From assembly GCA_965216765.1 (NCBI GenBank), contig OZ244199.1, forward strand, positions 2,310,357-2,374,356: DNA of 64,000 nucleotides. The letters run 5' to 3'. Shown here piece after piece: positions 1 through 16,330 of this stretch (its first letter is position 1; each line of letters begins with the position of its first letter). The notes under the pieces were generated by a model. The model worked only from the letters and a program-made list of their open reading frames with translations, had not been told where the DNA came from and did not search any database. This stretch comes from Rhodospirillales bacterium. GTDB taxonomy: Bacteria; Pseudomonadota; Alphaproteobacteria; Rhodospirillales; Casp-alpha2. The position numbers and the translations under genes were made by a program.

Positions 1-887
1 GAACCCAGCGTTAGAACCGGCTCGCCGTTTCCTTCCCGGTACGACAACTCCTCGTCGTATAGCCGCATCAGCATCGGGTCGAGCCTGGCATCGATGACAT
101 CGGCCGGTTCCAGCAACATCTGGCTGCGATACTTCGCCGGGCCCGCGCGTTTCTCGATGGCCCGGATGCGCGACGGCGGGAAACGTTGCGGCCAGCGGCT
201 CGCACCCTGCTCATCGACGATCGGCAACACCAAACGTTGAAAGCCTGAAAGGTACGGACGGGCTTCGCCTAACTCGACCCGCGCGTCATTGGCATAGATC
301 GAATGATAAGTGTGCGGCGTGCCGACAAACAGACGCAGCCCGTCCGGCGACAGCACAAAGTCGATCTCGTCCAAGCGTTCACGGAGCGCTTCACGCTTTT
401 CCGGCGTGTCGCAGGTGTTTGGTACTTCGACATCATCACAAATCACGACATCGGCGCGGGAACCCGTAACGTTGGCAACGATGCCCTTGGCAAGCATGGA
501 CGGATCACGGTGTGTACCGGCCCGAGATACGGTGAAGCGGTCAGACGCCCATTCCTCCGCCGCCTTCGGTTTCAGGCCGGCGGTCAAGGGATGGCGTTCC
601 AAGATGCGCCGGACATTACGCACCATCTTCACCGCCAACTGCTGATCGGCGGCAAGCACGAGAATGCGCAACTCAGGATCGCTCATCAGAAGCCAGGCTG
701 CGAACAAGCCAACCAGGGTCGACTTCCCCGAATTCCGGAACGCCATCAGCAACAACTCTCGGTCGTAAGTTTGCCATCTCTCCGACAGCCAACTGGCGAT
801 ATCGAAATGCAGATCCGGCGTCGTGAGGCGCTGCGTTTCGTTCCAGAGCGCAACGAAGACCGGAAAAGGGGGAACGTCATGCTTCAT
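1..887 (-). CDS. Large terminase subunit, T7 gp19-like (N-terminal ATPase part; 3' end outside the window; missed by the ORF track)
   Basis: My translation from ATG 887: MKHDVPPFPVFVALWN...ELLLMAFRNSGKSTLVG (Walker A, like T7 gp19 AFRGxGKS)...TGSRADVVICDDVE (Walker B)...FVGTPH; open to base 1. Confidence 0.93.
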   Translation of the reverse strand, partial: MKHDVPPFPVFVALWNETQRLTTPDLHFDIASWLSERWQTYDRELLLMAFRNSGKSTLVGLFAAWLLMSDPELRILVLAADQQLAVKMVRNVRRILERHPLTAGLKPKAAEEWASDRFTVSRAGTHRDPSMLAKGIVANVTGSRADVVICDDVEVPNTCDTPEKREALRERLDEIDFVLSPDGLRLFVGTPHTYHSIYANDARVELGEARPYLSGFQRLVLPIVDEQGASRWPQRFPPSRIRAIEKRAGPAKYRSQMLLEPADVIDARLDPMLMRLYDEELSYREGNGEPVLTLG

Positions 888-1233
888 TACTCTCTTCCTT
901 TCCACCCCCATCGCTTTCGGTCTCGGTTGCGTAGGCTGCATAAGCCGCCTCGGCACGCGCCAGCATTGCCGAGGCATCCGTCGTGTCTTGCTCTCCGACC
1001 GGTGTTTCGGTCCCGGTCGCATCCGACAGCTTCAGAAGGGCTTCGATGTGGGCGAGGCCCGCCTTGCAGGCTGCTTGATGCTGTTGAAACCCCTTGGCGT
1101 CGTCCGGCACCGGACCAAACGCCAAGGACCGGTATGTTTCCACCGCGTGGCGGAGTGCGCCGGGCAACGCTTCCTTCAACGTCCCCCGGCCACTGTTCTT
1201 GGCGGCAGATCGACCAGTCCTGCGCGGCGGCAT
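877..1233 (-). CDS. Helical hypothetical protein overlapping the terL start; candidate small terminase
   Basis: AAGGAG RBS before ATG 1233; stop overlaps the terL start by 11 nt; core DAKGFQQHQAACKAGLAHIEALLKL; acidic tail. Function inferred from position only. Confidence 0.55.
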   Translation of the reverse strand: MPPRRTGRSAAKNSGRGTLKEALPGALRHAVETYRSLAFGPVPDDAKGFQQHQAACKAGLAHIEALLKLSDATGTETPVGEQDTTDASAMLARAEAAYAAYATETESDGGGKEESNEA

Positions 1234-1259
1234 CTGCTTCTCCTTCTGATTAAACGACG

Positions 1260-1778
1260 TTAAGCCCACCCGGACCCGGTGTATTGACGACTCAGGGTAC
1301 TCGTTTCGTACGGCGCGTTGCCGCCACTGCTGAAACTGTTACTGATGCCGCGGGCGATCATCTGCCCACCTGTATTCGCGACGGTGGACATGATGTTATT
1401 CCGCGTCGCTAAGAGGTTCTCTCGCTCCCGCGCGCGCTGGTTTGCGCGCAAGCTCTCAACACCGAGATCGAATAGCCGGCGGTCCTCGGCAATCGCTTTT
1501 TCCGTACGCGACGCAATACCGTCGACAAGCGCATTCGCCGAACCGCCTGTCGATGAAACACCGCGCGCGCCGAATGCGGCCCGCGCCCTGGCCTGCTGCG
1601 CCTTCGATTGCTCGCGTTGACGGCTCTCTTGAACCTGACGCTCCTGTTCGCGTATCGCGATCTGCTGTTCCTGCTGCCGTCGCTGTTGGCGCGCTTGCGC
1701 CTTCGCCTGCGCCGCACTCTGAATAGACGATACTGCCGACGAAATGATGAGAGCCGTCGCTGTGCCTGGATCAGCCAT
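1260..1778 (-). CDS. Internal virion (ejection) protein, T7 gp14-like
   Basis: AGGAG RBS before ATG 1778; small-residue N-terminus, Q/R-rich coiled coil, then ARARAAFGARGVSSTGGS; follows tail tube B. Confidence 0.6.
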   Translation of the reverse strand: MADPGTATALIISSAVSSIQSAAQAKAQARQQRRQQEQQIAIREQERQVQESRQREQSKAQQARARAAFGARGVSSTGGSANALVDGIASRTEKAIAEDRRLFDLGVESLRANQRARERENLLATRNNIMSTVANTGGQMIARGISNSFSSGGNAPYETSTLSRQYTGSGWA

Positions 1779-1816
1779 GAAATTTCTCCTGTGTGTAAGT
1801 AGTCGTTTCGATTGAA

Positions 1817-3727
1817 TCAGCCATTGGACGCGACCTTGGTCGCAACCGACAGCAACGTGAAGGGTAGGGGCACGTCCTGGCGGATCGACCACAGCGCATC
1901 TGGACCAACGGTGCGCCAACCAAGCGCACGCACGGTCTTGTCACCCGTGAAAGCCGGCGCTGGCTGATCAAGGAGTGTTGGGCCCAATGACTGAAACGGC
2001 ACGTCGGCATAACCGCGTCCAACGTTAAGCCGGAGTGCCGCCGTCTCCTGTAGGCGAAACGTGACGCTAATTGGTCGGACCTTGGTTCCCATCCCACTGT
2101 TGGCGTCTGAGAGAACCAGCGGCATCGGCTCGACTCGGTGCTCGAAGCCGAGCCCTGCCTCAATCCTGGATGCACCGTAAGACAGGCTGATCTGTCCGTT
2201 GTCGACCACTGCGTCAACGCGCGGTGCACCATCGGCTAGGACGGTCAGTGTCTCGCCCTCCAGATGATCAAACCCCGGCCAGGTATCGGTCGGGGTTTCA
2301 TCTTCGTCGTCGAGGCCACTGTCGGTGGAGAGTGTTGAATCGAACTTCTCGACGAAGGCATTGTCGCCTCGCATCACCAAGACATAGACTTCTGTACCGA
2401 CTGCAGCCACGGACAAGAACTGACCCGCCGTTTCCTGCAATGACCAAGCGTTTACATTCTCGGCTCGATAGACTGTCAGCGTGCCGATACTTCCATTCGA
2501 CATCACCACGTGCAGATGCCGACTGGCGTTTTCGTAGTCCTGATCAATCGGCGAGACGATAAGATGTTGCGCCGTGGTCGCGAGGTCGGTCGCCTGATAC
2601 GCTTGTTCGACATCAGCATAAAGGAACTCGCGCATGCCGCTGCCATCTCGCGGCACAAAGATGGTCGCGCCGTCGATATCGCGCGGTGGCACAGCGCGAT
2701 CGACCGGCGAGCCGATACGCGTCTGGCGGCGGAGTTGAAGGTTCTCCGGCGTCAGCGGCTCACCCGTCACCATCCATTCCGCGCCCGACGTGAACACCTG
2801 CAGATGGCGTCCAGAAAACACCGCGCGGATCGCGTTGACCTGATCGGACAGGATGGCGAACTCGATGGACTCGTCGTCCAGTCCTTCGCCGAGATCGAAG
2901 TTGAACAGATCCGCCGACTTCGAAATCCAAAGCCGGTTCGGCAGATCTCGCGATCCACCGATCACCAATCTGTCCTGGTGAAAACAGATAGAAACCGGCC
3001 AACCGCGTACAGCTGAGAACGATTGCTCTTCCCAGTCATTGGTCGCGGAAGTGGAGGCGAGGGTTTCTTTGACCGTCGCCGTCGCAGATGTCGCCGAGCC
3101 AACGGCGGTAATCTCAACTTCCTTGTCCTGAAGACGCATCCGCGTACCGACATGGTCCGCGGCGAAGACATCGTCGGATGCCGTAAGCGTCACCGAACCG
3201 CTGGTCGCGCTTGCTGTCAGCGTGTGACCGTCGTCTGTGAATTTATGATGCGGTTGCTGCAGACGGTTCTTGCTATCGGATTGATCATCCAGGAACGACC
3301 ATGTCGCTATGGACCAGGATGTGTGTGAGGACCTTGAAATCTTGCGGGGCTCGACTTCGGGGTGCACGACAAACAACGTATCGGCACTCTGTACCCAGTT
3401 GATTTGACCCAGCTGATCCTCGGTCCACGGCGCTGCAAAATCTGCGATGGAAACGCCGTTGCGATAGACGTCGACATGTTCGTCGGAGAAGACCAGGAGA
3501 TATACCTGCTCCGTGTTGAATTCGAACGCAACCAGTCGGCCCGGACCGCGCGCGGAATCGATGTAACGCAGTCCCGGGCGGCGCACGACACCACCGGTCG
3601 CCTGAATGAGAACGTTGCGGAGTTTTGCTGCCCCGTTCCCGTAACTGCGAAGATCACCGCGTCCGAGCAAACGAGGCGAGATCTCGCCGCTGGTGAAGTT
3701 AGATTTGTCGATGTTGAGATGAACCAT
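1817..3727 (-). CDS. Tail tubular protein B / nozzle (T7 gp12, P22 gp10-like)
   Basis: N-terminus KSNFTSGEISPRLLGRGDL...NV...GGVVRRPG; GWP...FHQDRLVIGG beta-propeller motifs; 636 aa. Confidence 0.85.
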   Translation of the reverse strand: MVHLNIDKSNFTSGEISPRLLGRGDLRSYGNGAAKLRNVLIQATGGVVRRPGLRYIDSARGPGRLVAFEFNTEQVYLLVFSDEHVDVYRNGVSIADFAAPWTEDQLGQINWVQSADTLFVVHPEVEPRKISRSSHTSWSIATWSFLDDQSDSKNRLQQPHHKFTDDGHTLTASATSGSVTLTASDDVFAADHVGTRMRLQDKEVEITAVGSATSATATVKETLASTSATNDWEEQSFSAVRGWPVSICFHQDRLVIGGSRDLPNRLWISKSADLFNFDLGEGLDDESIEFAILSDQVNAIRAVFSGRHLQVFTSGAEWMVTGEPLTPENLQLRRQTRIGSPVDRAVPPRDIDGATIFVPRDGSGMREFLYADVEQAYQATDLATTAQHLIVSPIDQDYENASRHLHVVMSNGSIGTLTVYRAENVNAWSLQETAGQFLSVAAVGTEVYVLVMRGDNAFVEKFDSTLSTDSGLDDEDETPTDTWPGFDHLEGETLTVLADGAPRVDAVVDNGQISLSYGASRIEAGLGFEHRVEPMPLVLSDANSGMGTKVRPISVTFRLQETAALRLNVGRGYADVPFQSLGPTLLDQPAPAFTGDKTVRALGWRTVGPDALWSIRQDVPLPFTLLSVATKVASNG

Positions 3728-4296
3728 CAGGACCTCACATCGACCAGGGTGAAGTTCTCGAAATACACCGGGGATTCCTGCTGCGCGTCAATGGACTTGG
3801 CGCGCAGCAGTTCATCCTCGGCAAGTTTTAACAAGACCTCGGAACGGGAGGTGGAGTCCGTCAATGGGATGCAGAACTCTGCCGCCAGCCTTGCAATCAG
3901 GGATTGATCGAAAAATGCCGGAAAGGTTCTTTCATCGGGGCGGAAGATGTAAGTCAAAGTCACGTCTGCAGCGTCGGTATGTAGCCGACGCTCCGCGATA
4001 CGGTATGCAATTCCTCGGCCGCGCGCGCCGGTGCCCGCCGACAACACGCGGAGAAAGTCGCTCGGCAGTTGATAAGCGTAGCCATAATCGGCAACCGGCT
4101 CGGCGGCGAGTCGCGCCAACGCGACCTGACCGGTCGCGAAGCTCCATGGATGGCCCGAGATCAGAGCATCGCGTGTCGGGCTATAAAGGCTCGCGGCGAC
4201 CTCGGCTTCCGCCGTGCCGTCCTCAAACGATGCGATGCTATCCGCGCCAAGTTTCATCAGCGCTCGCGAACAGAGCGCGATATTGGACAGTGCCAT
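3727..4296 (-). CDS. Tail tubular protein A / head-tail adaptor (T7 gp11-like)
   Basis: AAGGAG RBS before ATG 4296; IALCSRALMKLGA...HPWSFAT...YAYQLPSDFLRV...ALIARLAAE; coupled to tube B. Confidence 0.85.
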   Translation of the reverse strand: MALSNIALCSRALMKLGADSIASFEDGTAEAEVAASLYSPTRDALISGHPWSFATGQVALARLAAEPVADYGYAYQLPSDFLRVLSAGTGARGRGIAYRIAERRLHTDAADVTLTYIFRPDERTFPAFFDQSLIARLAAEFCIPLTDSTSRSEVLLKLAEDELLRAKSIDAQQESPVYFENFTLVDVRS

Positions 4297-4321
4297 GTGT
4301 CGTCTCCTTGAATTTGCACAT

Positions 4322-4343
4322 AAAAAATGCGGCCCGAGGCCGC
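4322..4343 (-). terminator. Intrinsic terminator just upstream of tail tube A
   Basis: Minus strand GCGGCC-TCG-GGCCGC then ATTTTTT; ends 25 nt before the ATG. Confidence 0.55.
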
Positions 4344-4363
4344 TGGTGTTTACAGAACAAACC

Positions 4364-4439
4364 TTGTCATCCCCGCGCTGACGGGAATCCAATATTGGGC
4401 GGTCGCAGATGTGGATCCCCGCCTTCACGAGGATGACAA
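4364..4439. repeat. Alphaproteobacterial REP/RPE-like palindromic element
   Basis: TTGTCATCCCCGCG..CGGGAATCCA-spacer-TGGATCCCCG..CACGAGGATGACAA; matches the GTCATCCCCGCG...GCGGGGATGAC family. Confidence 0.75.
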
Positions 4440-4443
4440 AACT

Positions 4444-5994
4444 TCAGAATTCAAACCCAAGATTTTCGCCGTAGCGCTTAGCAAGGCGCTCGGGTCCGTG
4501 TTCCAAAAGCATCATGCGGAAGGCATCGGTCGTTTTGGTGCCGATATCGCCGTCGATTTTCAACGGTTCCGCTTCGGGTATCTTTTTCGCTTTTGCCGCC
4601 TCAACGCCAAGCCCGTTCAGACTTTCCTGCAATGCCTCCGCCGCCGCTTTCGGTTTCTCATCCCCGAGCAACGGTTGCACGGCATCTTCAATGGTCTTTT
4701 TCAAGCCCGACGCCGAGCGGCCCGAAGACCGCTCGCTTTCGGCGAAGCGTTTGAAGCCACCGAGTGCGGACGCCTCTTCGGTTTTACCAGCGCCTTTCTC
4801 GGCCAGCGATTTCATCAACGCGTCGCGTGTTTTCAGCCCGGCGATACCGTCTACCTTGAGGGACGCACCGCCAAGGTTGAGGCCGGTCTGCAAACCTTTT
4901 ACCGTCTCGCCCGCGCCCTGCTCGGCTGCGGCCTTCTCGAGCGTCCCGGCGAGCCGCTTGATGCCTTCCGCCAGCGTGCCGCCGCTGGCCGCCTTGGCAG
5001 GCGTCGGTATATCGGGAACCGAACGTTGCGGTTTCGGCTGGATCATGCGACCGGTCGCGTCCGTCTTGGCCAACACGTCGCCATAGGTCAGCGAATAGAA
5101 ATCGCGGCGTTTTTGGTCGAGTGTTTCCCGCAGCGGGTCACTCGCCTGCAGGTCGTGATACCAGTTGCCAAGATCGGCCACTTCCGCGTCCGTCAGCTGA
5201 TCAGCGGACTTATACAACAGCTCCGCCCTGGCGTTCTCCTTGCCGTTCGGCATCAGACCGGCCATTAGCTGAGAAGCCTCTGCAAATTCGCCACGGGAAC
5301 CTATCTCACGGTTCTCCGCTTTTGGATCTTGCGTCGCCCCCATACCGAACTCACCAGACGCCGATGCGCTACTATCGGCTCCAGGCATGAGGACATTCGG
5401 CCGGACATCACTGCCTTCGTATAGAGGTCCGCTGCTACCTTTTACTTCATCGTCGTCAATATATCGGTCGCTATTTATGTAATCACGGATCGCACGGCGA
5501 CGTTCGGCACCTATTTTCGTCCTCTCTTCAATCTTGTCGATTTCGATGATGTTGCCCCTACGTAGGGCATCATATCCGGCACCATATGGAGACCATTTTC
5601 CCCCCATTTCAAGCAGCTCTTCTTTTGTGAACGACTGGTCTATCCTGATATCCGTCTCAGCCGCATCAAGCGCACTTTGTGCCAAGCTGACGCAGTCCGA
5701 CGCAAACAGCTTATATTCGCCCGGATCGGCTCTTACCTTTTCTAAGAACCCAGCCGCCTTTTCGGCTTGAACCTTACTCAGGGGAAATTCCCGTGAAGTC
5801 ACGCCGTCATCACTTCTGCGATCCGTATCGTCACGTATTTCAGCTGGGTTCCCCCGCAAAGCTTCAATTGGGTTATCACTGCTGGAATACTTGCCTAAAA
5901 CCGGCACTTTGATTCCAGGCCCTTCCACACCGACAAAAAAGTGGCCCGTAGGCTTGCTCTTGTCGGCATACAAAGTCAGTTTATAGTCACTCAT
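4444..5994 (-). CDS. Chimeric protein: N-terminal permuted papain-like (His...Cys) domain plus C-terminal region with two PG_binding_1-like motifs; candidate effector
   Basis: AAGGAG RBS before ATG 5994; TGHFFVGV...YKLFASDCVSLAQSAL; C-terminal LQTGLN..LKVDGIAGLKTRDAL and LQESLN..LKIDGDIGTKTTDAF; no signal peptide; GC break inside the gene. Confidence 0.65.
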   Translation of the reverse strand: MSDYKLTLYADKSKPTGHFFVGVEGPGIKVPVLGKYSSSDNPIEALRGNPAEIRDDTDRRSDDGVTSREFPLSKVQAEKAAGFLEKVRADPGEYKLFASDCVSLAQSALDAAETDIRIDQSFTKEELLEMGGKWSPYGAGYDALRRGNIIEIDKIEERTKIGAERRRAIRDYINSDRYIDDDEVKGSSGPLYEGSDVRPNVLMPGADSSASASGEFGMGATQDPKAENREIGSRGEFAEASQLMAGLMPNGKENARAELLYKSADQLTDAEVADLGNWYHDLQASDPLRETLDQKRRDFYSLTYGDVLAKTDATGRMIQPKPQRSVPDIPTPAKAASGGTLAEGIKRLAGTLEKAAAEQGAGETVKGLQTGLNLGGASLKVDGIAGLKTRDALMKSLAEKGAGKTEEASALGGFKRFAESERSSGRSASGLKKTIEDAVQPLLGDEKPKAAAEALQESLNGLGVEAAKAKKIPEAEPLKIDGDIGTKTTDAFRMMLLEHGPERLAKRYGENLGFEF

Positions 5995-6219
5995 CTCTCG
6001 CTCCTTTTCAGAATTTTGACTGAAGTGGCCGTTGCAATAGCTTCCAGCCACAAACGGCGCATACGTGTATCCAGCACACGAACCCCGCAGATTTTTGATC
6101 TCGCCATACGGGAAAAATCCGCCACGCTAAATTCGTAAAATTTGTAAGATGTCGTCGTCAGCGGAAAATTTTCTCGCTGCGCCTTCCATAAATAAGCATC
6201 TATATCGAGGAGAAAAAAT

Positions 6220-6762
6220 ATGTCCGAAATTCATTTGAACACGCGTCAACGCGAGGATATTGCAAGCGTCTTCACAACACTTGCCGGGATTTGGTTTTTA
6301 CTAGCCCCACTGGAACACATTATTAAGGAGTCAAATATTGCACTCGATAAAGATGGCCTTCTGCAAAATTTCATCGACTTTATGTGGTCTTATGGCGCCC
6401 TCTGGCCATTAATTTTTGGTGGCCTGTACTACCTAGGTTTCTTCATAAAAAGAGGAAATTCTAAAGATATGGGCGTCGGCCTACCGGTTGGCGTTACCTC
6501 GTTGTTTATCTCTTTTGTTTCTATACTTGCGGGATATGCATCTTTGCTAATCGCTGGCACTGGTTGGATTGGCTGTATGTTCTTCATATCAGCGGTGTCC
6601 GTTGGTTCTTTTCTCGCTCTGCGAAGAATGTTTAGAAGGCATGTGATTTTTTCGGGGACACTTAGTGAGTTTCTATCCGGTGCAACGCCATTTTTTGCGG
6701 TGCAGTTTTGGATCATTTTTACTATTTCTCTCGAACCAAAGTTTGCCCGTGCATTTTACTAA
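6220..6762 (+). CDS. AT-rich multi-pass membrane protein, divergent from the effector; candidate immunity protein
   Basis: GAGGAG RBS; 4-5 hydrophobic segments; about 42% GC in a spot count of 6301-6360; the only plus-strand gene inside the virion cluster. Confidence 0.65.
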   Translation: MSEIHLNTRQREDIASVFTTLAGIWFLLAPLEHIIKESNIALDKDGLLQNFIDFMWSYGALWPLIFGGLYYLGFFIKRGNSKDMGVGLPVGVTSLFISFVSILAGYASLLIAGTGWIGCMFFISAVSVGSFLALRRMFRRHVIFSGTLSEFLSGATPFFAVQFWIIFTISLEPKFARAFY

Positions 6763-6810
6763 GAATGCTTCGGGCGTAGGTACGAGGCCTGCACGCCATC
6801 GGGGGTAGGA

Positions 6811-6990
6811 TCAGATTCCGAACCCAAGGTCTTCCGCGAATCGCTTGGGCAAGGGCTCGGGACCATGATCCCCCAGCGCGAACAGAAGGTATCGGTCATC
6901 TTGACGCCCAAACCGCTGTCGATTTCCAACAGCTCCGACGTTTTCTTTGCCATCGCCGTTTCTGTGCCGAGCCCGTTCGGCCTTGCCTGA
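6811..6990 (-). pseudogene. Frameshifted remnant of a paralogue of the C-terminal constant region of 4444-5994
   Basis: Reads QARPNGLGTETAMAKKTSELLEIDSGLGVKMTDTF / LFALGDHGPEPLPKRFAEDLGFGI* versus QESLNGLGVEAAKAKKIPEAEPLKIDGDIGTKTTDAF / MLLEHGPERLAKRYGENLGFEF*. 43 of 60 nt identical, ungapped, from the stop codons. Confidence 0.85.
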
Positions 6991-6995
6991 AAGGC

Positions 6996-7391
6996 TTAAG
7001 CCGGACCCTTCCAGACTTTGACACCTTTCTCGACCGAGCGGCCGACGACGTAACCGCCGACACCAAGTTTCAGGAGATCCCACATGTCCGGCGGGATCTC
7101 CGCCGACGGCGTGCCGAAAAGCGGCACGACGACGTAGTTATTGGCGATGATGACGCCGAACAGACACATCAAAAGCGGCCGCCAGTTACGTTGCAGCCAG
7201 CTTTCGCCCTGCGCTTCGGCGACGATGATGTTCGCCGCCGCCTCAATTTCCTTCATTTGGCCGTCCAGCACCTTCTGTTGTAGGACGGATTTGATTTGCG
7301 CCGCCTGATCCTTGTTCTCGACAGCTTGATCAACGACATCGAACAACCCCTTCAAGAGCGGTCCTGCAACCGCGGTAACGAGCCCCATCAT
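6996..7391 (-). CDS. 3-TM holin (GTA_holin_3TM-like)
   Basis: IVAEAQGESWLQRNWRPLLM...MWDLLKLGVGGYVVGRSVEK; MM dual start. Confidence 0.88.
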   Translation of the reverse strand: MMGLVTAVAGPLLKGLFDVVDQAVENKDQAAQIKSVLQQKVLDGQMKEIEAAANIIVAEAQGESWLQRNWRPLLMCLFGVIIANNYVVVPLFGTPSAEIPPDMWDLLKLGVGGYVVGRSVEKGVKVWKGPA

Positions 7392-7738
7392 GGCAGCCCC
7401 CTCTTTGCGCGCCTCGAGCCATCGGCCTCTCGCAGCATGAGCCCGAGGATGCGGTCGTTCTGCTGGGCGATGGCACGGGTTCGCTCGTCAAGACCAATCA
7501 ACTTGCCAACCAGCACGCGTTGTTGCTCATCGACACTGGCAAGCCGGTCGGATTGTTTGCGACGCATAGTCACGTTGTCAGCGACCGTCGCCTCCAAGGT
7601 ACCGATTCGGCCATCCGTCTCGGCGCGCCAGGTTGCATCGGCATATAGGAGCGCGCTGGTCTGAACGATCAACGCCCCGATGATGCCCAGCGGCACACGC
7701 TTATCGAGATGCCAAGCTTTATCGTTTCCCGTCATCAT
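7388..7738 (-). CDS. Membrane-anchored coiled-coil phage protein (lysis-cassette accessory)
   Basis: WHLDKRVPLGIIGALIVQT TM segment plus coiled coil; ATGA overlaps with both neighbours. Confidence 0.6.
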   Translation of the reverse strand: MMTGNDKAWHLDKRVPLGIIGALIVQTSALLYADATWRAETDGRIGTLEATVADNVTMRRKQSDRLASVDEQQRVLVGKLIGLDERTRAIAQQNDRILGLMLREADGSRRAKRGLP

Positions 7739-7935
7739 CCGCCACCTCCGTTTCTCGGATTGGCCGTCTGGGCCGCGCGCACATCGTCCAAGAATGTCTG
7801 CGCGGCGTCGGTCCTGAGAACGGGCGCTGTCGCCTCGACCAGGTCGGCGACAACGATCATGAGATCGTACTCGCGTCGGCGGATCGGCTCCCCCTTACTG
7901 AGCGCATCGTACTGCTTGCGTTTCCAACTTTTCAT
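7735..7935 (-). CDS. Small protein after the tail fibre (possible fibre chaperone)
   Basis: 66 aa, coupled between fibre and lysis genes; function inferred from position. Confidence 0.45.
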   Translation of the reverse strand: MKSWKRKQYDALSKGEPIRRREYDLMIVVADLVEATAPVLRTDAAQTFLDDVRAAQTANPRNGGGG

Positions 7936-7943
7936 GTGTCACC

Positions 7944-9566
7944 TCAATAAAATGCGACAAGGCCGACGCAGTCATGCAACCGGACCTCTTTGTTGTTGAC
8001 GGTGGTGATCTGGTAGACGAGCGATGCGCCACTCTGTGCCGAGACATCGGTTTCCAGGCGGAACAGTTCTTCACCATCGCTACCGATGTTGCCGACCTTG
8101 GTCCACGTGCCGATAGCCCAGGTAGAGCCGCCGTCAATGGAAGCTTTGCCGACGATGTCGGTGCCGTAGGTCACGCTGACCTGCGGATCGAGCACGAAGT
8201 AGCCGATGACGTCGGTCGGATCTGCAACTGCCAGCGATGCCGCAGAGGGCGACAACGTCATGTCTGTCGCCGGTCCATCGACAAGAAGCTCAAGCTCAAC
8301 CACCCCCCAACGCTGGTTTGTATTCGTTTTCGACATAGCCCAGCGCCAGTATCGGTAGCTCGTGGACGGTGAGATATCGAAGGTCTGATCGGATTGACTG
8401 TTCGTCGTCGTCAGGACAGTTGTCCAGGCACTGTCATCGTTGGAACCTTCAAGGGTCAACGTACCATTGGTTCCCGCGTCGTTAGCAGGTCGATGTCGCA
8501 TTTTCGTCGGCTGCACGTCGTTGCCGTCGCCAAGATCGACTTTGATCCAATGCGAGCCGCCATTGACCGTTGCGGTCTTTGTGTCGTCATCGCCGTCGGC
8601 AACAACTTCAATCCCTGCGCCGGGTGGCGTACTGTGCCCTGTCGATATGGATGAAGCAGTCCATGTTTGTTCGACGTCCGCCGTGTCGCACGCGTTGATC
8701 AAGCCCAAGTTATGATAGAAGTCGCCGTCGGCGTCGTACCGCGCATCCGTCGATACTGCTAGCGTGTCGACTTCGAAGTCATCCGACAGTTCGAACTTGC
8801 CGATGCCTCCCGTGATGGATACGGCGTCATTCTGTGCCAGCGAATACGCCAGCACCGACGCCGCCATATCCCGGGCGACATGATCGGCGCCGCCCGCGTT
8901 GCCCGCTGACCAAACGCCGCCGGTAAAGAAGAGCACCTGCCCCTCCACCGGCGTTAGACCGGCTATCGCCGTTAAGGCGGCATCGGCCGCCTGCGCACCG
9001 AGGGTCGTCCGCGCTGCATTGGCATCGGCATCATCGAGCAATGTTTCCGCGAAAGCCGTCATGGTGATGTACGGTTCCGCATTCGGTAGCGCCGTCGTAA
9101 GGTTGCCGTTGTCGTCAAAGACCAGCATGCGTCCGGCTCGGTCGGCGGTAGCCGGCAACGTCAATGTTGAGCCGGTATCCGATGAAGACAGCCGAACCGA
9201 GCGTTCGATGTCATCGGCGAGTTGCTGCAGCGCGGCGATCTGGAAATCCAACTCGTCGTTGATGACTTTGGCCCGAAATTCGCCCGACGCTTGAAAGTCC
9301 GACACGCGCCGAATGGTCAATTCGCGTACCAGTGCAACGGCCGCGCCGTCTTCGGGTGCGGCAACGAAGGTTACGGTGCCGCCGGCACTTTCACCGGCGC
9401 CGGATACCGAATATTGCGTCGTCAGCGTCTGTAGCGTGCCGTCGACATAAACGGCGATGTCTTCGTTTTGAAAGATCGGGAACGGATAGGTGAAGGCGAC
9501 CGTCGCGCCATCACCCGCATAATGAATGCGGGGCGCGATGTCGCCGATCTGGATGTGATCGGCCAT
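7944..9566 (-). CDS. Tail fibre with T7 gp17-type N-terminal anchor and an F5/8-type-C (discoidin) carbohydrate-binding domain
   Basis: RIHYAGDGATVAFTYPFPIFQNEDIAVYVDG; AFAETLLDDADANAARTTLG spacer; HWIKVDLG...TLEGSNDDSAWTTV...SYRYWRW. Confidence 0.85.
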   Translation of the reverse strand: MADHIQIGDIAPRIHYAGDGATVAFTYPFPIFQNEDIAVYVDGTLQTLTTQYSVSGAGESAGGTVTFVAAPEDGAAVALVRELTIRRVSDFQASGEFRAKVINDELDFQIAALQQLADDIERSVRLSSSDTGSTLTLPATADRAGRMLVFDDNGNLTTALPNAEPYITMTAFAETLLDDADANAARTTLGAQAADAALTAIAGLTPVEGQVLFFTGGVWSAGNAGGADHVARDMAASVLAYSLAQNDAVSITGGIGKFELSDDFEVDTLAVSTDARYDADGDFYHNLGLINACDTADVEQTWTASSISTGHSTPPGAGIEVVADGDDDTKTATVNGGSHWIKVDLGDGNDVQPTKMRHRPANDAGTNGTLTLEGSNDDSAWTTVLTTTNSQSDQTFDISPSTSYRYWRWAMSKTNTNQRWGVVELELLVDGPATDMTLSPSAASLAVADPTDVIGYFVLDPQVSVTYGTDIVGKASIDGGSTWAIGTWTKVGNIGSDGEELFRLETDVSAQSGASLVYQITTVNNKEVRLHDCVGLVAFY

Positions 9567-9593
9567 AGTGATCTCCTGTGATTGAAGGAACGT

Positions 9594-10040
9594 CTATTCA
9601 ACGTCGTTGTAAAAACGATGCCGACCGATAATGACAGCGGCGGCGCGGCCCTTGGCCCACGGCGGTGAGACATTGAGCGTGTGATAGTGGGTCGCGCCCT
9701 TGGTCGGATCCTTCAAGGTGCCGGCGAGTGCGCGACGTGCGACGCGCAGGCACGTCTTGAAGGTTGAGTTCGAGTTTTCGACGGCTTCGATCTTGGCACG
9801 GTTCGGATCGTTCTCGTTCCAGCATGAAAACTGCCACGGCTTGGTGCAGACGCTTTCGACATCGTCGCCCCACCAGTAGCCGCGCAGCCGACGGGCCCGC
9901 CGCACACGGTTGAGCACAATCGCTGCCACGGCTTCCTTCCCCCGCACGGGTTCGCCCCGCGCCTCGCCGTAAATCGTGCGGGCGAGCACGTCTATTTCCC
10001 GCGCACGCTTTTCATGCACGAAATCGTCTTGATTGGACAT
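9594..10040 (-). CDS. Cell wall hydrolase, SleB/Hydrolase_2 family (endolysin or virion lysin)
   Basis: LARTIYGEARGE...VLNR...KPWQFSCWN...DPTKGATHYH. Confidence 0.92.
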   Translation of the reverse strand: MSNQDDFVHEKRAREIDVLARTIYGEARGEPVRGKEAVAAIVLNRVRRARRLRGYWWGDDVESVCTKPWQFSCWNENDPNRAKIEAVENSNSTFKTCLRVARRALAGTLKDPTKGATHYHTLNVSPPWAKGRAAAVIIGRHRFYNDVE

Positions 10041-10076
10041 CGATCCTCTCCCTTTTTCAGGTTAGTTGGTTGAAAT

Positions 10077-10108
10077 AAAAAAGCCCGCCGGGCCGAAGCC
10101 GGGCGAGC
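10077..10108 (-). terminator. Intrinsic terminator with cUUCGg loop upstream of the hydrolase gene
   Basis: Minus strand GCTCGCCCGGC-TTCG-GCCCGGCGGGC then TTTTTT. Confidence 0.7.
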
Positions 10109-10178
10109 GGATTGATCACAAGGATTTCTGGCGAGATTAGGTTAAGTCATCATAGATCGATGAGTTAGTTTGCGGCCG

Positions 10179-10560
10179 TTAGGAGCCGCCGAAGTTTTTC
10201 TTGGGCAAGAATACGATGACACCGTCCGCCGTTCCGGGTGGATCGAAGGTCAACGAAATTTTGATACCCGTTGCAGACAAAGCCTCGTTCACGGCAGCAA
10301 TCGAGTTCGAAATCAGCCGTTTTTGATGCGGCGGCGGCGCGAGCGCATAGTAAACGGGCGAGATACTCCATCGGGACGCATTTTTGCCTGAGCCGTCATG
10401 TTCATGCGAGAGCAAAACCTTACGAACCAATGTCCATTCGCGATAAGCGCCATCTCTTCTTACGTTTCGATGGCGTGTGCATCCGACGTGTAGAGTAGCG
10501 CTAAAAGCACGCCAATCACCCATGATGTGAGATACGAAACGTTCAGACGTGCCCGTCGAT
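10179..10560 (-). pseudogene. Probable degraded secreted-protein gene (signal peptide and mature part in different frames)
   Basis: One frame gives RRARLNVSYLTSWVIGVLLALLYTSDAHA-IET*. The adjacent frame gives ...SRWSISPVYYALAPPPHQKRLISNSIAAVNEALSATGIKI, resembling DUF2927-type lipoproteins. GAGAGG RBS near 10565. Confidence 0.4.
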
Positions 10561-10588
10561 CAACCCTCTCGGATGACCGAGGCCAGAA

Positions 10589-11074
10589 TCACTTTGTTTT
10601 CTCTTTCACATAAACGAAGCGCATCAGCGCCAGAGTCAAATCGTCAATATTCTTCGCCAGAATAGGCATATCACCATTCCCAGATGCCGAAATTCGCAAA
10701 GGGTCGATACCTTTCTCGACAAGGTACACTCGTACTGCGGCAGCTCGATTGCCTCCCAACTCTAACCTTTCGATACTTGAGGGGGCTTCTCGCATATCCG
10801 CGAAGCCGACGAGTTCTATCCTAAGGCTCTGATTGGCGCGAAGATACGCGGCCTGCCGATCAAGAACCTTACGCGCTGAGGACGTTAGTTTCACTGACTT
10901 GTTGTCAAAAAAAACTTTCTCTTTCAACGCCTCGTGTTGATCAGGATGAGGGATGCACGGCAAATAAAAGTCGAGGCCGTTGGGCGCCACTTTTGGTGGA
11001 CAGATCGTCTCGCCCGCCAGCGCCGAAGAACAGCTAAACATCGCTAAGAATATTCCAGTCGTAATAGCTTTCAT
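10589..11074 (-). CDS. Secreted OmpA/Pal-like peptidoglycan-binding protein
   Basis: Signal peptide MKAITTGIFLAMFSCSSALA; VFFDNKSVKL...LDRQAAYL...IELVGFAD...LGGNRAAAVRVYLVEKGI. Confidence 0.8.
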   Translation of the reverse strand: MKAITTGIFLAMFSCSSALAGETICPPKVAPNGLDFYLPCIPHPDQHEALKEKVFFDNKSVKLTSSARKVLDRQAAYLRANQSLRIELVGFADMREAPSSIERLELGGNRAAAVRVYLVEKGIDPLRISASGNGDMPILAKNIDDLTLALMRFVYVKEKTK

Positions 11075-11132
11075 TATCTCAACCTCACTCCGCCGGCATC
11101 CTTCTGGTTCATTTCCGAATGAACCATGACGG

Positions 11133-11615
11133 TTATATTCTTATTGGAGGGCGAATCGGCTTCCCTGTTTTTGGATTTTTTCCATCAAGAATAATGTTTC
11201 CATCCTCATCCACGCCAGGGCGGGAGTAGATGCCTCCTTCATCTTTCGGCTTTGGAAGGAACGGTTTATTTAAGATCGGCATGTTCTTGTCGATATTTGG
11301 CGGTTCAAAAACAGGCATATTGCTGCCCGACGGTTGCGGCTTCTCGTCATTGTGACCAGTACTCGCTTCCAGCCCTCGCTTTATAGTCCTTTCTGTTTCT
11401 CCGCCCGGCTTCATAACACCGTCAACCTGAAGCATGTTGGCTCGTTGATACGACCAAATCCCATCAAACATTTGTTCATCAGGATACTGCGTCATGCCAT
11501 AGCGCGGCGTTTTATAATAGCCGCGTTTTTTCAGCGCGCCCTTGGTTTGCAACGCGTCCCGCTCGTCTATATGGGACGCGCTATCCACGCGCCCGAAAAG
11601 CTTGAATGGTGTCAT
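11133..11615 (-). CDS. N-terminal PG-binding-like domain plus AT-rich Pro-rich variable C-terminus; candidate effector
   Basis: AGGAG RBS before ATG 11615; TKGALKKRGYY..YPDEQMFDGIWSYQRANMLQVDGVMKPGGET; about 62% GC at 11521-11580 versus about 42% at 11161-11220. Confidence 0.6.
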   Translation of the reverse strand: MTPFKLFGRVDSASHIDERDALQTKGALKKRGYYKTPRYGMTQYPDEQMFDGIWSYQRANMLQVDGVMKPGGETERTIKRGLEASTGHNDEKPQPSGSNMPVFEPPNIDKNMPILNKPFLPKPKDEGGIYSRPGVDEDGNIILDGKNPKTGKPIRPPIRI

Positions 11616-11642
11616 CTTCATCTCCTGTACTCATCCAATGAA

Positions 11643-11672
11643 AGGACCGCGCCGGTTTTTCGACGCGGTCCT
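11643..11672 (-). terminator. Hairpin downstream of the capsid/decoration genes (possible terminator)
   Basis: Perfect 9-bp AGGACCGCG/CGCGGTCCT stem; weak U-tract on the minus strand. Confidence 0.45.
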
Positions 11673-11698
11673 CCCCATGGGTGCGAAGCCGAGACCGT

Positions 11699-11968
11699 TT
11701 AGTCGGTGTCGGAGCCGCCCACCTGCGTCAGGTCGTTCACGTCGACGACGCCGGAAGCATTGGCGCTGACGTAAAAGATCCCGCCCGCAGGCGTTCCGTC
11801 GGTGTCGACATTGGCGAAGATCATGTCGCCGACGCGCAGCATGTCGCTGGCGTCGTTGAAGTAATCCTCGGTATCAACGGTCGCAGCCGTATCAACGGTG
11901 GTGTAGTGCCAGAGCGTGAAGCCGTTCGCATAGGCCAGCACGCTCAGGTCTTTCGAGACGTAAGACAT
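11699..11968 (-). CDS. Probable capsid decoration/cement protein
   Basis: 89 aa beta-rich protein (LSVLAYANGFTLWHYTT...LRVGDMIFANVD) directly after the capsid gene; strong AAGGAG RBS. Confidence 0.6.
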   Translation of the reverse strand: MSYVSKDLSVLAYANGFTLWHYTTVDTAATVDTEDYFNDASDMLRVGDMIFANVDTDGTPAGGIFYVSANASGVVDVNDLTQVGGSDTD

Positions 11969-11992
11969 CGTTCTCTCCTTATCTGAACCGGA

Positions 11993-12811
11993 TCACGATT
12001 CCAGGCAGCGCATGGAGACGACACCCGCCGTATCCACCAGCGCCGAGCCCTGGCTCATCATGTTGTTGATGAAGTGCGCGGCGCGGTCGCCGTGCCAGGT
12101 GATGTCGGTCTTGACATCGGAACCGACGGCATGGCCGACGGCGATCTTGTGGTACCAGTAGCAGTAACGGACGCTCGACGTCAGTGTGAGGCCGGAGTGC
12201 GGCATCCACAGCGTGCCGAGCCAACGCTTGGCCTGGGTGCCCTTCCACGGCAGGTCCTCGTCGCCGACGTAGTCCGCGTGTGCGAACTCGTCGATGTCGA
12301 GAAGATCCGACCACTGCTTCCAGCCGACCACGGCGTAACGTTCACCGTCGTCCGGCACGTCGGCGCCGCCCAGCATCTCGAACGCCGTCAGCACCTTGGC
12401 CTTGGTCAGGCCGTCGGAACCGGTGCCGGCATAGTTGGTCGAGGTGTCGAGCTGCTCGATGACGAGCTCGTCGGTCTTGCGGCCGAGTGCATAGGCGCCG
12501 GCACGCGTGATGACGCCGCGCTCGTCGTGCGCGGTCTTCAGTTCGTCCAAGCTATCGACCCAGTCACCGGCGTAGTAGTCATAGAGGGTGACCTCCACCG
12601 GCTCGTGATCGACGTTCATCACCGGCACCTTGCCGTGCCGCGCCTTGGTCGTCGCCGTGCCCTTGCCGATCTTCTGGAAGGTGGTCGACGACCCCTGGAT
12701 ACCGTTCTTGGTGCGCACGGTATTGCGCAGTTTGGAGCCCATCCGCTGATAGGCCATGTGCACATCCGTCTGGAAATGTTTGACGAATGAGTCTTCAACG
12801 CTCGTGGACAT
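11993..12811 (-). CDS. Major capsid protein (compact HK97 fold, podovirus type)
   Basis: FVKHFQTDVHMAYQRMGSKLRNTV...DYYAGDWVDSLDELK...AGAYALGRKTDELVI; follows the scaffold; TAAGGAG RBS; strongly G/C-ending codons. Confidence 0.9.
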   Translation of the reverse strand: MSTSVEDSFVKHFQTDVHMAYQRMGSKLRNTVRTKNGIQGSSTTFQKIGKGTATTKARHGKVPVMNVDHEPVEVTLYDYYAGDWVDSLDELKTAHDERGVITRAGAYALGRKTDELVIEQLDTSTNYAGTGSDGLTKAKVLTAFEMLGGADVPDDGERYAVVGWKQWSDLLDIDEFAHADYVGDEDLPWKGTQAKRWLGTLWMPHSGLTLTSSVRYCYWYHKIAVGHAVGSDVKTDITWHGDRAAHFINNMMSQGSALVDTAGVVSMRCLES

Positions 12812-13044
12812 CGTCCGCTCCTTATCTGTTTGCGTTGTCGGGTGGAGTGAAAACCGGCCGCGCGGAGGTTCCGGGCCGGGCCGCCATGGCCCGCCCGCTC
12901 CCGCCGCCGGGACGCGCCCTCAGGCCCGCCGGTGCACGGTCATCGGACAGCACCTATGCGGGTTCTCTTCGGGCGAAAATTTCAGATGTAGGCCGCTTGG
13001 GGATGGCCAGGGAACTTTCTGTGGCCAAGCGGCCGTCTACAGGC

Positions 13045-13093
13045 ACGGAATCTCTCTGCACCTCTAGATTGCAGCCTCCGCGGGGATGACAAG
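13045..13093. repeat. Degenerate second copy (right half) of the REP/RPE-like palindrome
   Basis: TAGATTGCAGCCTCCGCGGGGATGACAA resembles TGGATCCCCGCCTTCACGAGGATGACAA ending at 4439. Confidence 0.55.
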
Positions 13094-13114
13094 AATTTTG
13101 AGGGCAGGGCAGTG

Positions 13115-13160
13115 GAAAAAAGCGGGGGCGCCGTGAAAGCCACAAACACGGCGCCCCCGC
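13115..13160 (-). terminator. Strong intrinsic terminator between scaffold and capsid genes
   Basis: Perfect 14-bp stem GCGGGGGCGCCGTG / CACGGCGCCCCCGC, 11-nt loop, TTTTTT on the minus strand. Confidence 0.8.
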
Positions 13161-13244
13161 CGGGACGGGGGAGCTGCGAAAACCCTATACGCGCTCAACC
13201 CCGCCCGAGGGGCGTTGCCGCCCCGTCTCTCGGCCGAGTGCGCC

Positions 13245-13982
13245 TTAGCCGGGATAGAGTCGCTCGAACCCCTGGCGGACCTTGGCGACAAGGGCCGGGT
13301 CCTGTTCGCGCCAGTACTTCGGGTCCTGCATCAGGGTGCGAAGCGCCTTTTCGTCCATGCCGCTTTCCCGCTGGCCGGTGCGGGCGACGCCCGGCTCGTC
13401 CGCGGCCATCATGCGATGTAGCGCCATGACTCCTTCATAGGTGCCGCTGAGCGCATCCATCACTTCGTCGGGCAGATGCGCCTTGCCCCAATCACCAAGC
13501 TGTTTGGCGACGCGTTGCCAGCGTTCGGCGCCGCCGAAGGTTTCTTCTAGACGGCCCTGTACAAGCGCCGCTTCGCGTTTGCGCTCGGCAGCTTCCAGTT
13601 CCGGCACTACGTATTTGCGCGCCAGGTCATAGACGAGCTGCGCCTGATCGTTGGTGAAGCGTGCATCGTGCAAGATAGCATTGACCTCAGGGTCCGCATG
13701 GCGGTCGCCGCAGTCAATGCAGTATTCCTCTGGGCTCGGCGGATAGCCGACGTCACCCTGATGGTAACGGTTCTCCAACGTCTGATAGGACCGCCAGAGA
13801 GAGCCGGCACGGACCTCACCTTTTTCGTCGTCCCAGAATTTATCCGGCAGGCCGGCAGGCCGCGGCTTCTTCGGCGGCAAGTCATCCGCGACAACCTCCG
13901 GCGCGGCAGACGCGCCGCTGTCAGCCATAGAAAAGTCTTCGTCTTTGTCGTCGGTGTAGTCGTTTTCAAGATAGTCGGACAT
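13245..13982 (-). CDS. Capsid scaffolding/assembly protein
   Basis: Acidic N-terminus, RPAGLPDKFWD...SYQTLE, C-terminal LMQDPKYWREQDPALVAKV; lies between portal and capsid. Confidence 0.8.
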   Translation of the reverse strand: MSDYLENDYTDDKDEDFSMADSGASAAPEVVADDLPPKKPRPAGLPDKFWDDEKGEVRAGSLWRSYQTLENRYHQGDVGYPPSPEEYCIDCGDRHADPEVNAILHDARFTNDQAQLVYDLARKYVVPELEAAERKREAALVQGRLEETFGGAERWQRVAKQLGDWGKAHLPDEVMDALSGTYEGVMALHRMMAADEPGVARTGQRESGMDEKALRTLMQDPKYWREQDPALVAKVRQGFERLYPG

Positions 13983-13993
13983 GGTGGTCTCCT

Positions 13994-14266
13994 TTATGCG
14001 TTGTCGTCGGCCAGGACTGCGAAAGGCGGCACCGGGCCGCTGCGTCCTCGCTCGATAAGTGCCAAAAGGTGCTGCACCAGATAGCGCTGCCCCTCGAGAT
14101 GGCGAAGCTGCGCGTCCGGTACGGCGGGGCCGAGCGCGCGCCCGGTGGTGATCGTGCGCAAGTAGTCGAGCAACCGCTCACCGTCTGCGCCCGAGAAACA
14201 TCTGGCCGCGCTGACTGCCAAAGCCTCGGGATCGTTATCGGCGACCGGGGTGTCAGTTCTGGACAT
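13994..14266 (-). CDS. Bbp19-like small phage protein
   Basis: FSGADGERLLDYLR...LRHLEGQRYLV motif; directly after the portal. Confidence 0.7.
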   Translation of the reverse strand: MSRTDTPVADNDPEALAVSAARCFSGADGERLLDYLRTITTGRALGPAVPDAQLRHLEGQRYLVQHLLALIERGRSGPVPPFAVLADDNA

Positions 14267-15914: not shown

Positions 15915-15915
15915 A

Positions 15916-16137
15916 TTAGTCTCCCAACTTCTCTTTAAGGTCATCGCCGTCAGCGCTTCCGCTGCCGCCGCCAAGCGGATCGATGACGCCTCGCTCGGAC
16001 GTCGCGATGGTCCCGGCGCGGCCGCGGCGACGGCGCTCGATTGCTTCCAATCTGCGTTTGCGATCCTCGGCGCCGGTATCGACCGGTGGCGGGGTTGGAG
16101 GTGCAGGCGGGGGTGACGATGAGAATAAACCTCCCAT
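15916..16137 (-). CDS. Small pre-portal virion protein
   Basis: MGGLFSSSPPPAPP...RRRRGRAGTIATSERG pattern typical of podoviral pre-portal genes; AAGGAG RBS. Confidence 0.7.
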   Translation of the reverse strand: MGGLFSSSPPPAPPTPPPVDTGAEDRKRRLEAIERRRRGRAGTIATSERGVIDPLGGGSGSADGDDLKEKLGD

Positions 16138-16201
16138 GATGGAATCTCCTTGCGGTTTAAGTGAACGGGAACCGGTCCGCGACACGCGAAGCCGGAAATA
16201 G

Positions 16202-16233
16202 AAAAGGCCGCCCCAAAATTGCTTGGGACGGCC
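16202..16233 (-). terminator. Intrinsic terminator about 65 nt upstream of the first virion gene
   Basis: Minus strand GGCCGTCCCAA-GCAATT-TTGGGGCGGCC-TTTTCTATTT; the G.U pair forms only on the minus strand. Confidence 0.7.
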
Positions 16234-16330
16234 AGGGATGCTCGGCCATCGAGTGGCCGGCGGGGGGAACTTCACGCAGCTGGAGGCTGGGCGGGTCGGC
16301 CACGCGGCCGTCAAATGTACGGAATGTCGG

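Follow-up and report, generated by a model that had tools for sequence, protein, structure and literature searches.

A putative cassette of a polymorphic envelope-targeting effector and an immunity candidate, linked to a domesticated podovirus-type particle cluster in Rhodospirillales

In Xanthomonadales, a type IV secretion system (T4SS) is associated with antibacterial effectors, the X-Tfe, and with their immunity proteins, the X-Tfi (PMC8740702, PMC10933484). The MuF toxins of temperate phages have been proposed to travel in the capsid and to enter the target cell with the DNA (Jamet et al. 2017, PMC5576092). By their logic, these are the two systems nearest to the locus described here, which belongs to neither of them. 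The locus lies in a stretch of 64,000 nucleotides (hereafter, the window) from a marine Rhodospirillales bacterium (GenBank assembly GCA_965216765.1, contig OZ244199.1, positions 2,310,357 to 2,374,356) and includes a gene encoding a 516-residue protein and, on the opposite strand, a gene encoding a small membrane protein, both within a set of podovirus-type structural genes. With somewhat more confidence than doubt, it can be read as a cassette made of a polymorphic envelope-targeting effector and of an immunity candidate, tied to a domesticated podovirus-type particle cluster. A literature search found no description of this protein family or of the particle cluster.

On the minus strand, the longest open reading frame (ORF) spans 4444–6051 and would encode 535 amino acids (aa) from a GTG start. 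The likely start is an ATG at 5994 with GGAG in front of it, giving a 516-aa protein (4444–5994, stop codon TGA at 4446–4444) that begins with MSDYKLTLYADKSKPTGHFFVGV. This N-terminus contains no hydrophobic leader or signal sequence, in agreement with the original prediction that was made from the DNA sequence. The protein consists of an N-terminal head (aa 1–160, 5515–5994), a variable, low-complexity linker (aa 161–249, 5248–5514) that contains a recombination junction near 5274, and a constant C-terminal module (aa 250–516, 4447–5247). The His and Cys motifs and the two peptidoglycan-binding motifs that had been noticed at its ends are present, as GHFFVG (aa 17–22) and YKLFASDCV (aa 94–102) in the head and as two LQxxLN...DGxxGxKT motifs (aa 368–393 and aa 455–492) in the constant module. 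The G+C content (GC) is 0.500 for aa 1–200 (0.495 at third codon positions, GC3) and 0.604 for aa 250–516 (GC3 0.708), compared with 0.431 for the membrane gene, 0.584 for the cluster and 0.593 for the whole window. Both the break within the effector gene and the foreign-looking composition of the head and of the adjacent gene, as first proposed, are therefore real.

The family of this effector candidate displays a modular polymorphism. A word search returned 13 relatives, which share a conserved C-terminal part of about 270 aa and fall into three classes by their unrelated N-termini, and an exhaustive HMMER search extended the family to at least 276 representatives (clusters at 50% identity, E <= 1e-3). 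Among 159 proteins checked (the HMMER matches listed and the first homologue set), 156 match aa ~250–514, and the number of residues ahead of the constant module ranges from 0 to 371 across the family. When 106 complete-looking members were clustered by their first 150 residues, 28 head classes were obtained, namely lysozyme-like heads (25 members), class A, to which the head of the window belongs (22), class C (14), class B (10), DUF6973 (5) and many singletons. Comparison of 70 members with Pfam identified PG_binding_3 in 56 of them, LysM in 4, Phage_lysozyme in 2, and SLT, Phage_lysozyme2, DUF6973 and Ntox44 in one each; the recognised heads include the GH24 lysozyme. The variability of the N-terminus on a constant C-terminus is directly visible in the alignments of 13 and of 150 relatives and is not due to chance. 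The idea of a variable head on a constant peptidoglycan-binding chassis was thus well founded: when the constant ~270 aa were searched across genomes and their heads and neighbours catalogued, many unrelated heads emerged instead of an invariant N-terminus. Like polymorphic toxins, the family combines one constant module with many unrelated variable modules that are exchanged by recombination. However, classical polymorphic toxins have a constant N-terminal trafficking part and a C-terminal toxin, a polarity that is reversed here.

Heads and adjacent genes are replaced together. In a metagenomic contig from a very closely related bacterium (L036, P0004), the holin and the tail tube A are 94% identical to those of the window and the constant module 81%, whereas the head is only 15% identical. 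The nucleotide homology runs through the holin, ends at 6993 and restarts at 5274, inside the effector gene. Between these points, the window contains a swapped segment (5275–6992) with a relic, an opposite-strand membrane gene and a class-A head, whereas the unrelated DNA of L036 encodes a 234-aa signal-peptide protein on the same strand and a class-B head, which bears out the expected joint exchange of head and neighbour between close relatives. Conversely, the constant modules of proteins that share the head class of the window are just 41–55% identical to that of the window, and head and body therefore have separate histories. The relic (6811–7000, minus strand), located directly after the holin, corresponds to the 3' end (~65 codons) of a constant module that has been displaced. 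It is decayed and frameshifted, with 71% nucleotide identity, a stop codon in register and a tblastn match in two frames. Comparable relics occur in four other loci (L007, L010, L017 and L018), and remnants of displaced modules close to the active gene are also a trait of polymorphic toxins. One of these loci is a fossil of successive cassette replacement: in L017 (7804–10858), a gene for a 244-aa class-B-type partner adjoins a decayed class-B head (8596–8961), upstream of a newer cassette with an intact gene carrying a different head and a Sel1 protein gene on the opposite strand.

The gene that accompanies the effector candidate in the window (6220–6762, plus strand, AGGAG ribosome-binding site) encodes a 180-aa protein with 4–5 hydrophobic spans, which is considered as an immunity candidate. 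It is the sole convincing plus-strand gene within 1–16300 and corresponds well to the head-to-head, AT-rich gene with several transmembrane (TM) segments initially described. According to the positive-inside rule, its exposure to the periplasm would be limited to a loop of ~22 aa and to the C-terminal ~10 residues. This protein matches no Pfam, PHROG or NCBIfam family and a word-indexed search with it returned only itself. It is nevertheless a divergent member of a family of 173–229 aa that adjoins class-A and class-C heads (E 1e-5 to 2e-6 to the others).

The families of these neighbours follow the head classes, as had been anticipated. The partners of class A are opposite-strand multi-TM proteins of 173–229 aa, found in the window and in L003 (twice), L006, L007, L010 (twice) and L018, and L011 carries a truncated copy. 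Those of class C are related TM proteins of 180 and 183 aa (L004 and L015). Class B is accompanied by signal-peptide proteins of ~240 aa encoded on the same strand, in five loci (L005, L010, L019, L036 and L017). Globally, the association of head class with partner concerns three partner families and more than 15 loci, and the Sel1 family accompanies two other heads. The same pairings of head and partner recur inside the particle cluster and outside it (L010, L015, L018 and L019). Furthermore, each of the distant stand-alone members, in non-phage contexts, is preceded by a gene encoding a small signal-peptide protein, one of which is CarG-like. On a Logan contig (L026, 600–4453), a member with an 'NNPGN' head follows a gene for a CarG-like periplasmic protein, and this pair lies on a small islet with genes for an AlpA-type regulator and for an integrase at its flanks. 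In another genome (G019; L034, 12975–17414), seven opposite-strand genes of low GC (0.40–0.46), lipoprotein-like and for several of them paralogous, adjoin a 488-aa family gene located between scaffold and capsid genes; this group looks like an immunity array.

The class-A head of the window carries His18 (5941–5943), Asp56 (5827–5829) and Cys101 (5692–5694), as well as Tyr94. In an alignment of 24 diverged heads, no substitution occurs at His18, Gly34 or Tyr94, and substitutions are rare at Gly17, Phe19, Asp56 and Cys101 (Cys101 being present in at least 90%). The AlphaFold2 (AF2) model of aa 1–155 has a predicted local distance difference test score (pLDDT) of 95.2; in this model, Cys101 opens the helix 101–111 and His18 the strand 18–24. 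A conserved His ahead of a conserved Cys, the former on a strand and the latter opening a helix, is the arrangement of the permuted papain-like clan. The best matches found in the Protein Data Bank (PDB) by Foldseek are the 2A proteins (H-box/NC) of parechovirus and Aichivirus/kobuvirus, with weak scores (E 0.11–1.9, TM-score 0.35–0.49). Within the permuted NlpC/P60 clan, the H-box/NC 2A proteins are members of the LRAT/PLAAT branch. At the sequence level, aa 1–250 match no Pfam, NCBIfam or PHROG family at E <= 1, the head matches neither LRAT, NlpC_P60 nor PPPDE of Pfam, a PDB sequence search with the head gave no match, and a word-indexed search with the head alone returned only itself. Motifs and model together make the head a candidate enzyme of H-box/NC type, either a hydrolase or an acyltransferase with a Cys-His(-Asp) site; as the fold scores are weak, a papain-type fold is plausible, not established. 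From the permuted papain/NlpC-P60-type head initially proposed, the His preceding the Cys and the position of Cys101 at a helix start are thus retained, and the assignment to this fold is left with weak structural matches and no Pfam match. The alignment by hhalign of the 'SNS' of class C with the 'NC' of class A is not significant (P = 0.038, probability 1.3%). Elsewhere in the window, two small minus-strand ORFs (28521–29323), of 145 and 122 aa, are without Pfam match; the 145-aa one (28521–28958) was considered as a head relative and rejected (hhalign probability 0.3%).

The constant module comprises a helical front part followed by two repeats of PG_binding_3 type on the minus strand. Both the first one (4789–4914, LQTGLN...LKVDGIAGLKT) and the second (4468–4653, LQESLN...LKIDGDIGTKT) are recognised by Pfam and by their motif. 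PG_binding_3 (PF09374) is the only Pfam match of the effector candidate (30.2 bits for a cut-off of 24.6, in two stretches). The family profile matches the PG_binding_3 domains of Sen1395 (E 8.5e-5) and TtsA (E 4.2e-4), which are the sole recognisable relatives of the module. The model of the module is all-helical (pLDDT 95.7), and Foldseek places the same two domains on top, with a probability of 0.8–0.89 but an E value of 0.24 and a low TM-score; a fold search of BFVD gave nothing significant except a local peptidoglycan-binding match. In the front part (aa 250–340), K262, T268, E271, D312 and G315 are near-invariant across 150 diverged members, and this part also includes a conserved segment in extended form (DxTGRMIxPxP). 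The idea that the front part is a degenerate GH108 domain, formerly catalytic, was considered and rejected, as no Glyco_hydro_108 was detected in 70 members and the superposition with TtsA was poor. The constant domain, i.e. the helical region with its two PG_binding_3 repeats, is new to current domain databases, as are the Cys-His head and several families of candidate immunity proteins.

Beyond these domains, NCBIfam gave no match for the effector, and the weak endolysin matches found in PHROGs are confined to its peptidoglycan-binding part. PADLOC found no defence-system match for the effector or the membrane protein, a tblastn search of 50,697 phage records with the effector gave no match, and a scan of IMG/VR found only 2 loci. 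No Phage_Mu_F (MuF) domain was detected by Pfam in the window protein or in 70 relatives.

The cassette is located in a podovirus-type structural set that occupies the minus strand at 1–16300. In the order of transcription, this set encodes a portal, a scaffold, a capsid, a small PG_binding_1-like protein, an OmpA-like protein, a Hydrolase_2 protein, a T7-type tail fibre, a DUF7365 protein and a holin (GTA_holin_3TM), then the effector cassette, tail tube A, tube B (nozzle), a gp14-like protein and TerL. The closest phages are pelagiphages of the HTVC010P type (~30–34% identity for tube B). The cluster is bordered by UbiA on one side and by methylmalonyl-CoA mutase, right after TerL, on the other side, and contains no integrase or replication genes. 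Tube B is found in 182 of 301 genomes and in 65 of the 111 genera of the order, mostly as a single copy (48–79% identity), and the mutase recurs as a neighbour of the cluster in other genera. Because of these housekeeping borders, this gene content, this distribution and this recurrent neighbour, the cluster is treated as a vertically inherited, domesticated and chromosomally fixed particle locus.

The holin gene (6996–7391, minus strand) marks the upstream side of the cassette as a conserved anchor, and the holin is a possible exit route for the signal-less effector. The clusters of other genera encode, in this sequence, portal, scaffold, capsid, tube A, tube B, gp14, fibre, TerL, Hydrolase_2 and holin, but no family gene; L028/L033 (G286), for instance, have only Hydrolase_2 and holin at this level. 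As Hydrolase_2 and holin are thus found together in clusters devoid of any family gene, the Hydrolase_2 cell-wall hydrolase (9594–10040, minus strand), whose gene adjoins that of the holin in other genera, is likely the true endolysin of the cluster and forms with the holin its core lysis pair. Compared with L028/L033 and L029–L032, the cluster is rearranged in the genus of the window: Hydrolase_2, fibre, DUF7365 and holin lie between capsid and tube A, whereas the order in the other genera is T7-like and ends with TerL, Hydrolase_2 and holin beside methylmalonyl-CoA mutase. Within the same genus, one genome (G129, L016) has kept the stretch from capsid to holin and a cassette with a DUF6973 head; the 10 kb that follow are devoid of tube A, tube B, gp14 and TerL genes. 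A second variable slot of low GC follows the capsid gene of the window (10179–11621). It encodes a 162-aa protein, an OmpA-family protein (GC 0.49) and a 114-aa ORF; the N-terminus of the 162-aa protein resembles PG_binding_1 (E 0.0015), and this N-terminal part is found again in L011 and L016, in two or three copies.

Around the effector gene itself, the AT-rich divergent region between effector and membrane genes (5995–6219) presumably contains promoters; the scores of a promoter scan were not above those of shuffled controls, and neither exact alphaproteobacterial LexA boxes (GTTC-N7-GTTC) nor exact CtrA boxes (TTAA-N7-TTAA) are present in the window. A GC-rich hairpin followed by a T-run, resembling an intrinsic terminator (4329–4343, minus strand), lies between the stop codon of the effector gene and the start of tube A. 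The latter is an ATG at 4296 with an AGGAG ribosome-binding site; since tube A has 189 aa in the relatives, its longest ORF (233 aa) is probably too long.

The family is linked to the particle cluster as an accessory to it. Family genes occur in 65 of the 301 genomes, and 51 of these 65 carry tube B (odds ratio 2.9, p = 9e-4), the capsid gene being found in 4 more. In 32 of the 51 genomes, the family gene is located within 25 kb of tube B, whereas random placement would give this with p ~1e-38. Depending on the lineage, the gene occupies a slot after the holin, between scaffold and capsid, or beyond TerL. Most of the tube-B-positive genomes (131 of 182) are devoid of the family at E <= 1e-8, and the family protein is therefore not an essential delivery part.

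As regards the enzymatic activity, toxicity, immunity and delivery route of the predicted effector, we infer the following scheme. The protein combines a swappable N-terminal head, presumably an enzyme, a floppy linker and a constant helical module of 270 residues with two PG_binding_3 repeats. Having no signal peptide, it would stay in the cytoplasm until the holin opens the inner membrane or until the particle takes it in or on. After its arrival in a periplasm, it would be anchored on peptidoglycan by the constant module, and its head would attack the substrate. This would be peptidoglycan itself for the lysozyme and SLT heads; with a class-A head, it could be a peptide stem or else a lipid bound to the membrane. 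The latter option would fit with the class-A partner being an integral membrane protein. The opposite-strand gene encoding 4–5 TM spans could be expressed independently, and its product may spare kin or the producer. New units of head and partner replace older ones by recombination, with breakpoints at the end of the holin gene and at the junction between linker and constant module, leaving relics behind. A more speculative extension, which we hold to be rather improbable, is that the constant module is both loading signal and wall anchor, placing interchangeable weapons in or on particles resembling gene transfer agents (GTAs).

Several observations weigh against the reading of the locus as an effector and immunity cassette. 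The absence of the family from most clusters argues against a core role in the particle and, conversely, family genes are present in at least six near-complete genomes that have neither tube B nor capsid gene, so that the particle is not strictly required. As no significant sequence or fold match was found for the head, its chemistry is a guess. The class-A examples come from one genus-level clade, and the co-variation of heads and partners could be partly plain linkage, as a single pair of recombination anchors flanks the two. At L038 (4956–7572), a distant class-A head is found without any membrane gene beside it; this locus has two tandem family genes, encoding a headless 301-aa protein and a 523-aa protein with the class-A head, between scaffold and capsid. 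Intact headless members (~280–345 aa) are present in some clusters, so that the constant module must have a function of its own beyond this model. Finally, adjacency to a holin and heads of peptidoglycan hydrolases are also what a shuffled endolysin would look like.

This last point leads to an alternative that we judge unlikely, although it deserves serious attention, in which the protein is an accessory or alternative endolysin: devoid of signal, it would cross through the holin when particle production ends, bind the wall and help to lyse the producer, the heads being shuffled phage lysin domains and the neighbours hitch-hiking morons or lysis regulators. The position of the gene after a GTA_holin_3TM holin, the lack of a signal peptide and the weak PHROG endolysin matches are all consistent with it, as are the recognisable heads, which are typical lysin domains (GH24, SLT, tail lysozyme), and PG_binding_3, which is the wall-binding domain of the muramidase TtsA. 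The export of TtsA depends on a holin, and opposite-strand morons, such as lambda bor, are common beside phage lysis genes. However, a conserved Hydrolase_2 is already present in the cluster and, in other genera, stands beside the holin without any family gene. An endolysin would be expected wherever cluster and holin are, and the family is absent from most such genomes; its genes also occupy positions beyond TerL or between the scaffold and capsid genes, and some lie in non-phage surroundings devoid of a holin. Furthermore, partner families follow the head classes from one genomic context to another, and the stand-alone members are preceded by periplasmic proteins, none of which an endolysin needs.

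The protein could also be a delivery tool instead of a weapon, namely a virion-associated protein that replaces the missing T7 gp15/gp16 core, is packaged, ejected into the periplasm of the recipient and held on peptidoglycan, where it would open the wall and clear the path of the DNA. We regard this as distinctly unlikely. The T7 gp16 protein and many internal proteins of podoviruses carry peptidoglycan-lytic domains, the cluster has a gp14-like gene and no genes of the size of gp15/gp16, several lineages have the family gene inside the head module, between scaffold and capsid, and the headless forms are retained intact. Nevertheless, most clusters are devoid of the family gene and lack gp15/gp16 as well, which excludes an essential delivery part, PHROGs, Pfam and BFVD reveal no similarity to internal virion proteins, and the gene is located ahead of tube A and not after gp14, where a core protein of this type would be expected. 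The fast replacement of heads with matched envelope partners, along with the relics, fits better with conflict. Last, the locus might be DNA of foreign origin, decaying or without function, left by a moron at a hot spot of the cluster. The low regional GC, the adjoining relic and the lack of close relatives of the membrane protein in the word-indexed search would suit such a remnant, which is however very improbable given that both genes are intact with good ribosome-binding sites, that head and constant module are modelled with pLDDT of 95–96, that catalytic-looking residues are conserved in 24 diverged heads and that hundreds of intact relatives exist.

If the reading as an effector and immunity cassette is correct, a widespread and apparently undescribed system of phage-derived particles in an alphaproteobacterial order is equipped with exchangeable proteins that attack the envelope and with the protectors that match them. 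It would then be directly relevant to the purpose of GTA-like particles, whether DNA exchange, kin discrimination or warfare. Should the constant module in addition be a loading signal, the particles would deliver toxins plus DNA to neighbours, as a capsid-based effector-delivery system, and the partners would provide kin-recognition immunity, relatives being spared and strangers harmed.

Comparison with known systems places the family between several of them. With TtsA and Sen1395 (GH108 muramidase with PG_binding_3; PDB 6V40 and 6V3Z) and phage lysins of GH108-PG_binding_3 type, it has in common the family of its C-terminal wall-binding domain and the lack of a signal peptide. It differs from them by the lack of a GH108 domain in the 70 members compared with Pfam, by an interchangeable catalytic part, by the duplication of the peptidoglycan-binding unit and by the additional conserved helical region ahead of it. 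As in LRAT/PLAAT proteins (H-rev107), picornavirus 2A and permuted NlpC/P60 proteins, the His of the class-A head lies ~83 residues ahead of the Cys; the likeness to the H-box/NC proteins extends to an 'NC' dipeptide at a helix start and to a His in a beta-strand, although the match is only weak and the window protein has 'DC' where its relatives have 'NC'. The payloads of Photorhabdus virulence cassettes and extracellular contractile injection systems (PVC/eCIS) and the internal proteins of T4 likewise associate a phage-derived particle with exchangeable cargo genes beside structural genes. These are, however, contractile systems or true phages with N-terminal loading signals, whereas the particle considered here is of podovirus type, with a terminase, and the loading of cargo into it is hypothetical.

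Like MuF toxins, the family consists of polymorphic toxin-like proteins encoded in phage head or packaging modules next to immunity genes, which are candidates in the present case. Unlike them, it has no MuF domain, its variable part is N-terminal and its heads seem to be aimed mainly at the envelope; moreover, MuF toxins belong to temperate phages of Firmicutes, whereas this podovirus-type cluster is fixed in chromosomes of Alphaproteobacteria. The X-Tfe resemble the family even in their architecture, since both have variable N-terminal envelope-attacking domains (lysozyme, SLT, often with peptidoglycan-binding parts) ahead of a conserved C-terminal module, and neither has a signal peptide. 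The gene of a cognate small periplasmic or lipoprotein immunity protein adjoins that of an X-Tfe, and that of a candidate partner adjoins the effector gene here. The conserved module of the family is nevertheless not XVIPCD but a new helical module of 270 aa with two PG_binding_3 repeats, and a T4SS plays no part. Finally, in contrast to the X-Tfe, the family is linked to a phage-derived particle cluster and its holin, and some of its partners are integral membrane proteins.

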